From: Patescibacteria group bacterium
Lineage (GTDB): Bacteria; Patescibacteriota; Minisyncoccia; Phycocordibacterales; Phycocordibacteraceae
Assembly (NCBI GenBank): GCA_019752595.1
Contig: JAIELV010000001.1
Coordinates: 726,240 to 790,239 of the forward strand
Direction: 5' to 3'
DNA length: 64,000 nt
The translations under genes and the position numbers were made by a program. Under the pieces are notes generated by a model. That model had not been told where the DNA came from. It was given only the letters and a program-made list of their open reading frames with translations, and made no database searches. Within the stretch, counting starts at the first letter, position 1; each line of letters starts with the position of its first letter. This document shows positions 8,456 through 10,135 of the stretch, piece by piece.

Positions 8456-10135
8456 ATGGAGGTGAGAGGAAGTATAGAAGTAGCGCTTAAAACTGCACTC
8501 TCAAAGTTCGGCCTTGAGGCAGATATCGTACTCGATCACCCCGCGGACCTTTCGCACGGTGATTATTCCTGCAATGTCGCACTCGCAGCTGCTAAAAAGG
8601 CAGGAAAGAATCCGAAAGTTCTTGCGGAAGAAATCCTGAAAGAACTCGGCGCAATTGAAGGTGTAGAGAGTGTTTCAGTGGCTGGCGCGGGTTTTCTAAA
8701 TTTTAAACTCTCTAAAGATTTCTTTCCGAAAGCGACCGCGGAAATTTTAAAGCAGGGCGAGAATTGGGGCAGAAATGATCATGTGAAAGGCTACAAGGTG
8801 ATGGTCGAATACACCGACCCGAATCCGTTCAAGGAATTCCATATTGGACACCTGATGTCGAACGCTACTGGCGAGGCGATAGCGCGTTTTGTTGAATTTT
8901 CTGGCGCAGATGTTTTAAGGGCGAACTGGCAGGGGGATGTGGGTCCTCACGTAGCGCGTGCGATTTGGGGCAGAATGCAAAAACCAGAACTCGCGTGGGG
9001 GGCTGCATACACATACGGTTCCGAACAGTACGAGGCCAACAAAGAAGCGATTGATGTAATCAATCAGGAGGTGTACGACAAAAGTAATCAGAAAGTAAAC
9101 GAGCTTTATGCAATCGGTCGTAAAGAATCACTCGAACACTTTGAAGATATTTACAAAGTACTCGGCACGAAATTTGATTACTATTTCTTTGAGGGCACCG
9201 AAGGGCTTGAGGGAATCCCGCTTGTGAAAGCAGGTTTGCAGAAAGGTATATTTGAAGAGAGCGACGGAGCAGTTGTTTTCAAAGGAGAACAGTACGGCCT
9301 CCATACGCGTGTGTTTTTGACCGCAAAAGGATTGCCGACCTATGAGACGAAAGAGTTAGGGCTTAATCAGGCGAAGTTTAGGAAAGAGCCGGATATTGGA
9401 CTCTCCATAATCATCACAGCAAGCGAACAATCAGAATATTTCCGTGTCGTTCTTAAAGCGATGGAGCAAGTATTGCCAGATATTGCTGCCAAAACGAAAC
9501 ATATTTCGCACGGCATGATGCAACTCACGAGTGGGAAAATGTCGTCCCGAAAGGGGAACGTGATTACGGGCGAGTCTTTGATTGAAGAAATGCGCCAGAA
9601 AGCGTTTGAAAAAATGGAGGGGCGCGATTTAGGCGCAGAGAAACAATCTATCGCAGATGCTGTGGCTATTGCTGCAATAAAATATTCAATACTCAAACAG
9701 GCGCGCGGAAAGAATATTATTTTTGATCCTGAAGCGTCACTTTCTTTTGAAGGGGACTCAGGCCCGTACCTTCAGTACGCACACGTTCGCGCGCGAGCTA
9801 TTCTTCGGAAAGCTGGGGACGAGGGAATACCACTCAATTCGACTGATATGATATATCATATCAGTGCAACAACAGAGGGGGTCACCACACTTGAGCGTTT
9901 GTTGTATCGGTTCCCAGAAGTGGTATTTCGCTCTGCAAAAGAAAACGAACCGCATCACGTGACAACGTACCTCACGGAGCTGGCGTCTACTTTCAACAGT
10001 TGGTATGCGGGGACTAAAATTGTTGATTCAAGTGATGCTGAGTCGCCATACAGAGTGGCACTTACCCAGGCATTTGCGCACACCATGAAAAATGGCCTTT
10101 GGCTTTTGGGTATACAAGCTCCCGAGAAGATGTAA
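8456..10135 (+). CDS. argS: arginine--tRNA ligase
   Basis: HIGH-like HIGHLMSNATGEAIAR, KMSSRKGNV, C-terminal DALR anticodon-binding domain. ORF track start 8402; Met at 8456 is the more likely start. Confidence 0.9.
   Translation: MEVRGSIEVALKTALSKFGLEADIVLDHPADLSHGDYSCNVALAAAKKAGKNPKVLAEEILKELGAIEGVESVSVAGAGFLNFKLSKDFFPKATAEILKQGENWGRNDHVKGYKVMVEYTDPNPFKEFHIGHLMSNATGEAIARFVEFSGADVLRANWQGDVGPHVARAIWGRMQKPELAWGAAYTYGSEQYEANKEAIDVINQEVYDKSNQKVNELYAIGRKESLEHFEDIYKVLGTKFDYYFFEGTEGLEGIPLVKAGLQKGIFEESDGAVVFKGEQYGLHTRVFLTAKGLPTYETKELGLNQAKFRKEPDIGLSIIITASEQSEYFRVVLKAMEQVLPDIAAKTKHISHGMMQLTSGKMSSRKGNVITGESLIEEMRQKAFEKMEGRDLGAEKQSIADAVAIAAIKYSILKQARGKNIIFDPEASLSFEGDSGPYLQYAHVRARAILRKAGDEGIPLNSTDMIYHISATTEGVTTLERLLYRFPEVVFRSAKENEPHHVTTYLTELASTFNSWYAGTKIVDSSDAESPYRVALTQAFAHTMKNGLWLLGIQAPEKM
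9842..9865. repeat. 24-bp perfect palindrome ACTGATATGATATATCATATCAGT, copy 1, in-frame inside argS (encodes TDMIYHIS)
   Basis: exact palindrome read directly; identical copy at 22235-22258 and near-identical at 51856-51879. Confidence 0.85.

Follow-up and report, generated by a model that had tools for sequence, protein, structure and literature searches.

A dispersed 20-bp palindrome found in frame in a Patescibacteria argS gene, and its association with a TrpR-like helix-turn-helix protein

The operators recognized by TrpR and HisR are 20-bp palindromes with a lineage-specific consensus, and these regulators frequently control their own genes (PMC9413887). Here we describe a palindrome with a core of the same length in a stretch of 64,000 nucleotides from a Patescibacteria group bacterium (contig JAIELV010000001.1); this whole stretch is referred to below as the window. 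The initial annotation had pointed to a 24-bp palindrome within argS, read in frame as TDMIYHIS, and we located it there and at two further positions of the window (copies 1, 2 and 3; Table 1). We propose, with a probability that we put at roughly 0.6, that argS holds one of the dispersed copies of a 20-bp dyad site (TGATATGATA-TATCATATCA) that is cognate to a helix-turn-helix (HTH) protein of the TrpR/YerC family in Patescibacteria. Judged by analogy, the system seems most like that of the TrpR/HisR operators and in part like the REP-RAYT systems considered below. It shares with TrpR/HisR operators the 20-bp core, the arrangement of outer half-sites across a spacer, a consensus that shifts with the protein, and a site upstream of a gene of the Pfam family PF01371. 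In contrast to TrpR/HisR regulons, sites lie on either side of the regulator gene, and there are tens of identical copies (up to 24 exact ones per genome) rather than a few degenerate ones. Copies also lie between convergent genes and in frame in housekeeping genes, palindromes with their arms reach 36-50 nt, an additional invariant C-terminal tail (KKKYPLHFLLFPWPK) is present in the protein, and neither a small regulon of promoter sites nor an amino-acid biosynthesis regulon is evident.

Repetitive extragenic palindromes (REPs), with their REPIN arrangements and REP-associated tyrosine transposases (RAYTs), consist of hundreds of imperfect, decaying palindromic copies, occur as doublets, and come with a Y1/HUH transposase gene (Nunvar 2010; Bertels and Rainey 2011). 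The palindromes described here are likewise short, mostly extragenic, often situated at 3' ends and genome-specific, and they too have a single associated gene that is flanked by the repeats. That gene, however, encodes a TrpR-like HTH protein, the copies are exact and perfect, they number tens rather than hundreds, they do not form doublets, and in-frame copies occupy conserved positions. Hence, we do not classify the palindrome as a REP-RAYT element, since it has no Y1 transposase, no doublets and no cloud of decayed copies. Rickettsia palindromic elements (RPEs) are ~100-150 bp long, are specific to Rickettsia, add ~30-50 residues to the proteins in which they lie, and have no associated DNA-binding protein (Ogata et al. 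2000). The argS copy had initially been compared to an RPE, and part of this comparison stands: a repeated palindrome lies in frame in protein-coding genes and supplies extra residues in regions that tolerate them. The unit, however, is only 20-24 bp long, with flanks that are not conserved; it adds 0-7 residues, is found exactly or not at all, and is tied to a gene for a TrpR-family HTH protein in a Patescibacteria host. The palindrome is therefore not an RPE, because neither its length nor its host lineage fits. Intragenic sites of CodY and CcpA are palindromic, and the bound repressor can block elongation; these sites are degenerate and are not conserved as perfect palindromes. The palindrome in argS resembles them as a palindromic site inside a coding region, and a roadblock role here would be putative.

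Exact matches to the 20-mer TGATATGATATATCATATCA were found in 75 stretches of a species-representative genome collection, nearly all of them in ~13 metagenome-assembled genomes (MAGs) of Patescibacteria. Pairs of cores lie a few hundred bases apart around a gene of ~145 codons in two unrelated bins. A tblastn search over the palindrome-selected loci showed that this gene adjoins the palindrome in five genomes and is bracketed by it in four. Exact cores flank both sides of a 140-150-residue PF01371 gene in bin.228, Kaiserbacteria JACRFJ01 and LaPlata_bin-2928. In CAYHYY the core downstream of the TrpR-like gene is a variant with two mismatches, and in JBBUBT the core upstream of the gene is the only exact copy in that genome. 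The form of the palindrome found in the window (its "dialect") flanks a TrpR-like gene in three loci (L090, L121 and L151). The regulator protein scores above the cut-off for Pfam Trp_repressor (PF01371), with a weak match to YerC/YecD, and its closest solved relatives by profile and fold are the YerC/HisR-like structures 3FRW, 3KOR and 3G1C, followed by E. coli TrpR. No catalytic domain is recognisable in the bracketed HTH protein. Homologs fall into ~1250 clusters, and all of those with a source name are from Patescibacteria. We then scanned metagenome contigs for TrpR-like homologs and obtained 80 loci encoding 67 distinct proteins, nearly all of which are flanked both upstream and downstream by an ATATAT-centred palindrome (GATATATC or CATATATG). 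Within ~120 nt of the gene, a perfect palindrome whose arms measure 8 nt or more is present upstream in 51 of 66 cases and downstream in 48 of 65, as compared to 9 of 826 control windows.

The outer bases of these palindromes are lineage-specific among the metagenomic loci (ACTATGATATATCATAGT, ATTATGATATATCATAAT, GGTATGATATATCATACC, ACTTTGATATATCAAAGT, GACTTGATATATCAAGTC, ACACCCATATATGGGTGT, ACTATCATATATGATAGT and others). In 40 of 42 loci the two sides of the gene have an identical 8-nt half-site, which varies from lineage to lineage. Moreover, the outer bases change in step with residues of the protein encoded next to them. Wherever position 4 from the dyad is G (44 of 44 cases), the HTH motif "VGxDT" has its Asp; where it is C or T, the residue is other than Asp in 11 of 13 cases (Fisher 4e-10, with no correction for phylogeny). 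Similarly, "GA" at positions 9-8 is paired with an Arg of the first HTH helix, and "AC" with Tyr-Asp/Glu. The Asp/G and Arg/GA correlations support a predicted direct readout of the half-site by the HTH protein. We take the palindrome to be the cognate site of the TrpR-like protein because it brackets the gene, because protein and DNA covary, and because TrpR/HisR operators are themselves 20-bp palindromes.

The C-terminal tail of the TrpR-like protein (KKKYPLHFLLFPWPK) is almost invariant (P0121 in alignment A4, residues ~112-146) and is lacking in classical TrpR/HisR; it is predicted to be disordered in the monomer, with a predicted local distance difference test (pLDDT) score below 50. A distant TrpR-family paralog, with 27-29% identity to the main type, is encoded at 1378-1994 of the Patescibacteria contig L161 and is bracketed by palindromes of its own, whose centre (CAGTTAACTG) resembles that of the E. 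coli trp operator. This paralog lies directly upstream of a complete argFGHCJBD cluster that is followed by argS (2247-11653). Apart from this distant paralog, no TrpR-like gene was found in the argS loci examined.

In argS of the window, the codons ACT GAT ATG ATA TAT CAT ATC AGT specify TDMIYHIS, and copy 1 lies ~270 nt ahead of the stop codon. DMIYHI corresponds to residues 463-468 of the 558-residue translation (from 8459). These residues had been assigned to a position just upstream of the C-terminal anticodon-binding domain; Pfam places them inside that domain, in the first inter-helix loop of DALR_1 (438-558). The loop, which runs from the LQY..R helix to the L.RFPE helix, is 37 residues long in the window's ArgS, as compared to a modal length of 30 in orthologs (40 of 99, these being the sequences among 120 orthologs in which both helix motifs were matched). 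Hence the alignment with orthologs, which had been suggested as a check, bears out that the segment is extra. The suggestion that the insertion is tolerated in a surface loop also agrees with the predicted structure. An AlphaFold2 model made with 28 orthologs is confident overall, with a mean pLDDT of 91 and a predicted template modelling score (pTM) of 0.90. Residues 461-470 have a mean pLDDT of only ~64; this stretch falls between helices 435-454 and 477-482, and DMIYHI is modelled as a short helix. On the evidence of alignment and model, the palindrome-encoded segment of ArgS is extra with respect to close relatives, in what is predicted to be a variable, poorly ordered surface loop that tolerates it. 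Since the residues occupy such a loop, we regard the encoded peptide as a passenger and place the constraint on the DNA.

A motif centred on I-Y (SDLIYQI, SDFIYQI, TDTIYSI, TIIYDS, AMIYHS and GMIYHA) occupies this position of the loop in at least 11 of the 120 ArgS orthologs, and in most of them it lies nine residues ahead of an LERL motif. We read the DNA of five of these orthologs, and all five have a perfect 20-24-nt palindrome of another dialect at that position (Table 1). The argS gene of LaPlata_bin-2928 (L009) has the exact core of the window, at the position that it occupies in the window's argS. The argS position is occupied in at least six separate lineages, with at least five dialects. 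In the syntenic stretches of 11-22 kb from L077, L161 and L162, the argS copy is the sole palindrome of this type. We conclude from the five orthologs with palindromes of other dialects that the recurring entity is the palindrome in the DNA and not the peptide. Orthologs that kept the residues and encoded them by unrelated nucleotides had been named as the finding that would speak against an inserted element; what we see is the reverse, since other orthologs differ in peptide and yet keep a palindrome. The presence of different dialects at one position therefore indicates a DNA-level constraint or a strongly preferred site, rather than a one-off tolerated insertion. An old site may have followed the changing specificity of the regulator and been lost many times, or the site may have been gained repeatedly at one permissive position. 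The loop encodes DMIYHI, DLIYQI, GMIYHA, DTIYSI or AMIYHS according to the dialect of the lineage, which suggests selection or drive at the level of DNA over neutrality at the level of protein.

The reading frame itself is uninformative. On each strand TGA closes two frames of the core, and the one that stays open is xT GAT ATG ATA TAT CAT ATC Ax. The in-frame position is therefore forced and not a coincidence, any intragenic copy that survives must encode DMIYHI, and the frame common to copies 1 and 3 carries no evidential weight. Copy 3 had been read as the N-terminus of the CofE-like protein. CofE-like homologs from two syntenic relatives begin at the Met of the ATG at 51901, so copy 3 is probably noncoding and the longer open reading frame (ORF) a product of ORF calling. 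ORFs that open at the ATG of the core were found at 51862 in the window and in L040, where the ORF is comEC-like; such starts, including the long CofE-like ORF and the one in L040, are probably annotation artefacts. In 13 cases (within L001-L075), the neighbouring gene takes its stop codon from a TGA of the core (the first three bases or positions 6-8) or from the mirror TGA of the opposite strand.

The window is attributed to Patescibacteria (candidate phyla radiation, CPR) on the basis of its unlinked rRNA genes and of ArgS relatives named Parcubacteria or Patescibacteria. The 18-mer core has three matches in the window, as compared to 0.00 expected from 100 dinucleotide-preserving shuffles, and the 10-nt half-site has seven, as compared to 0.04 expected. 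Six of these seven are the halves of the three full palindromes, and the seventh belongs to a decayed copy. Copy 2 is positioned 3 nt past the metG stop (22231) and 38 nt ahead of the tatD ATG (22297); copy 3 is positioned 18 nt past the stop (51837) of a Vut_1 transporter gene and 21 nt ahead of the ATG at 51901. The decayed copy follows the recO stop at 16313, and the longest ORF of the DUF11 gene begins at its ATG (16327), so this start too may be an artefact.

Outside the window we counted 87 exact copies of the 20-mer, with between 1 and 24 per genome: 24 distinct copies in one Paceibacterota bin, 12 in a Saccharimonadales MAG, and 1-8 in the others. A few matches in genomes from outside the Patescibacteria look like chance. 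The 638 kb analysed contain 90 exact copies, three of them from the window, no copies with one mismatch, and three with two mismatches. Lone half-sites were absent beyond the relic in the window, the non-Patescibacteria locus L056, and a core-truncated copy in L151. The density of the palindrome is ~1 per 20 kb, and the closest pairs of cores are at least 213 nt apart. By crude ORF calls, ~75% of the 90 copies are intergenic, in tandem, divergent and convergent spacers alike, and many lie at the 3' ends of genes. Complementary arms can be specific to single copies inside one genome (caagctac/gtagcttg and gagcggag/ctccgctc). Intragenic in-frame copies were found at the same position in two genomes each for murD, miaA and a capA-like gene, and further ones in tsaD, sua5, iscS, pdxS, prmC, comEC and holB, the genes being named from a reading of their translations. 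Judged by eye, DMIYHI in miaA, sua5 and iscS appears to replace native helix residues with no change in length. Among the neighbours of dispersed copies, clustered across genomes, only the TrpR-like gene stands out; they are otherwise functionally mixed.

We also noted that all four same-position intragenic sites across genomes (miaA, argS, murD and capA-like; L006, L009, L026 and L065) involve LaPlata_bin-2928, which is possibly closely related to several of the other genomes, or else a composite bin. Pairs of exact cores bracket other small genes as well: an XRE-type HTH gene (PF01381) in a Saccharimonadales MAG (L035, 6215-6667), a 140-residue ORF (L033, 5049-5602) and a 313-residue ORF (L069, 4199-5186).

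If the palindrome is the cognate site of the TrpR-like protein, the examples of TrpR and HisR suggest that the protein would bind as a dimer and read the outer half-sites, ~4-9 bp to either side of the dyad, with the invariant AT-rich ATATAT centre between them. What we observe comprises exact repeats, a forced frame, a position in the ArgS loop, the tie between gene and palindrome, and the covariation of protein with DNA; binding by the protein, any co-repressor and any effect on transcription are what we infer. The two sites that bracket the regulator's own gene could mediate autoregulation and possibly looping, and further exact copies would lie between genes and, where the protein permits, inside them. 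Copies 2 and 3, with their short distances to tatD and the CofE-like gene, might act as operators; the argS copy, if it acts at all, would be an intragenic occupancy site or a roadblock. A broader proposition, which we consider doubtful, is that the Patescibacteria TrpR-like HTH protein is always bracketed by its own palindrome and maintains or propagates tens of exact copies, including fixed in-frame sites such as that in argS. If this were true, protein and palindrome would co-diversify into many dialects, and the whole would be a REP-RAYT-like, or a genome-tagging or architectural, system in which a DNA-binding protein takes the place of a transposase. The genomes of Patescibacteria are tiny and contain few regulators that can be recognised, and the group has hardly been studied by experimental genetics. 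Here, a TrpR-like protein paired with an exactly conserved, easily recognised site would offer a directly testable way into gene regulation or chromosome organisation. Searches of open-access text returned no paper with the 20-mer, only unrelated matches for its 12-mer centre, and nothing relevant on palindromic repeats, REPs or TrpR in Patescibacteria/CPR.

Several of our observations weigh against the palindrome being simply the operator of the TrpR-like protein. Transcription-factor sites are normally degenerate, whereas the copies found here are exact. About one quarter of the intergenic copies, as classified by the crude ORF calls, lie in convergent spacers, and the gene that follows the regulator's downstream copy is mostly convergent too; neither location would be expected to hold a promoter. 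Beyond the 20-bp core, 33 of 90 copies have arms that are complementary over 4 bp or more, as compared to ~0.4% expected, and perfect palindromes of 36-50 nt occur beside the regulator gene. The arms also have a genome-specific consensus (CCGTAAAcC in Bin_17_1, TAAC in bin.228 and aCGT in SMAG_U14554). The footprint of a dimeric HTH protein leaves both the arm complementarity and this consensus unexplained. The regulator cassette is non-syntenic between lineages, with ~130 neighbouring ORFs falling into 81 clusters, and the neighbours of dispersed copies form ~12 families shared across genomes, as compared to ~9 by a rough chance estimate. The closest ArgS ortholog (P0001, 89% identity) has a 30-residue loop, and its DNA (L076) has no palindrome. 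Lastly, homology searches found no TrpR-like gene in the 64-kb window, so its presence in the window's genome is assumed. Taken together, exactness, arm complementarity, genome-specific arms, placement away from promoters and lack of synteny suggest duplicative spread of a longer unit and/or growth by fold-back or template switching. It is thus possible, if unlikely, that we are dealing with a REP-like selfish or neutral repeat, a unit of ~24-38 nt (the core with its genome-specific arms) that spreads by copy-paste or by fold-back/template switching. The TrpR-like gene would then be the "master" gene, as RAYT is for REPs, and the argS copy an in-frame insertion that is tolerated and does nothing for the host. 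This explanation comes nearest to the one first put forward for the argS copy. Such a repeat would fit the arms, which extend far above chance, the presence of copies in every type of intergenic spacer, the frequent use of the core TGA as a neighbour's stop codon, the changing context of the cassette, the seven residues by which the argS loop exceeds the modal length, the close ortholog with no site, and the wide range of copy number. It is less easily reconciled with the product of the bracketed gene, a small HTH protein in which no catalytic domain is recognisable, or with the near absence of decayed copies. Furthermore, we saw no target-site duplications and no tight REPIN-like doublets, the nearest pairs being so far apart. 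A tolerated insertion is also at odds with an argS position taken in so many lineages and dialects, mostly at a constant distance of nine residues from LERL, and with DMIYHI being apparently length-neutral in miaA, sua5 and iscS.

Some of the same features could reflect a hairpin that functions independently of the TrpR-like protein, either as an RNA stem-loop (a terminator, an RNase III site or a stability element) or as a DNA cruciform or single-strand hairpin in replication or recombination. Each window copy is predicted to form an RNA hairpin of ~-12 kcal/mol with an AU-rich stem (z-scores of -2.3 to -4.3 relative to shuffles), the copy-specific complementary arms resemble compensatory stems, the argS variant TGATTTGATATATCAAATCA has a symmetric double change, and 3' ends of genes are a common location. 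We nonetheless regard this explanation as improbable. There is no U-tract, a consensus scan called no terminator at any window copy, and ordinary GC-rich terminators with T-runs occur elsewhere in the genome (repeat family D1). A 20-bp stem in essential mRNAs would carry a cost. A constraint on structure alone would permit many sequences, yet the 20-mer is invariant within a dialect. In addition, the outer bases of the palindromes change together with residues of the neighbouring HTH protein; a purely structural role is less likely because of this invariance and covariation. That the argS segment is ordinary ancestral coding sequence, palindromic by accident, is scarcely credible. Its residues do form a short helix in the ArgS model; against this, the window holds three copies where none is expected, the identical 20-mer recurs in ~13 other genomes and in unrelated genes, every one of the five I-Y-motif orthologs whose DNA was read has a perfect palindrome, and the closest orthologs do not have the segment.

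Other candidate functions were considered and rejected. For a promoter, with TGaTATGAT as an extended -10 element, the consensus scan gave no consistent signal at the three window copies, and the share of intergenic copies in convergent spacers is as given above. For an intrinsic terminator, the three copies have no T-run, no terminator-like call and an AU-rich stem. An asymmetric motif akin to DNA uptake sequences was set aside because the half-site practically never occurs alone. Rfam at gathering thresholds identified only rRNAs in the window and no other known RNA family, and the window contains no tRNAs. For a phage origin, IMG/VR has two exact matches, neither of them with a TrpR-like gene.

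Table 1. Palindrome copies, genes, rRNAs and other repeats in the window, with the palindromes at the argS position of other loci. Coordinates are window positions.
Feature	Coordinates	Strand	Description
Copy 1	9842-9865 (20-bp core 9844-9863)		perfect 24-nt palindrome ACTGATATGATATATCATATCAGT; in frame in argS, encodes TDMIYHIS
Copy 2	22235-22258		24-nt palindrome identical to copy 1; intergenic, metG/tatD spacer
Copy 3	51856-51879		AGTGATATGATATATCATATCACT, outermost bases differ from copy 1; upstream of CofE-like gene
Decayed copy	16321-16345		left half-site ACTGATATGATA intact, right arm diverged; between recO and DUF11 gene
argS	8456-10135	+	likely start ATG 8456; longest ORF from 8402; Arg_tRNA_synt_N, tRNA-synt_1d and DALR_1 domains
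tatD-family gene	22297-23106	+	directly downstream of copy 2; candidate regulated gene
CofE-like gene (F420_ligase family)	51901-52578	+	directly downstream of copy 3; candidate regulated gene
argS-position dialect, L077			TGATTTGATATATCAAATCA
argS-position dialect, L078			same as L077, with AG/CT ends
argS-position dialect, L161			ACTGGCATGATATATCATGCCAGT
argS-position dialect, L162			CCGATACTATATATAGTATCGG
argS-position dialect, L163			GTGCTATGATATATCATAGCAC
23S rRNA gene	40706-44327		3622 nt
5S rRNA gene	44426-44531		follows 23S
16S rRNA gene	57960-59419		unlinked
Second repeat (~70 nt)	10154-10219, 61512-61583, 599-660		three copies, the first right after argS
CTAAAACCT/AGGTTTTAG-like repeats	15232-15263, 23113-23144, 37169-37205, 39361-39395, 40601-40677, 43622-43699		

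Some other features of the window deserve mention. The spacer between argS and ileS (10136-12247) is 2.1 kb long and contains one doubtful ORF of 174 residues on the minus strand; the corresponding spacer measures 0.2-0.6 kb in the syntenic loci L161 and L077. The second repeat listed in Table 1 has an internal inverted repeat (GAAAATGAAAA / TTTTCATTT) and matches no Rfam family at gathering score. The 23S rRNA gene exceeds the 2925-nt model by a wide margin and hence carries an insertion of ~700 nt, possibly an intron; the 16S rRNA gene lies 13.6 kb downstream. Repeats rich in units that resemble CTAAAACCT/AGGTTTTAG are found around the rRNA region and elsewhere (families D3, D5, I1-I3, I18 and I24), and one of them is a 41-nt near-palindrome inside the 23S insertion.

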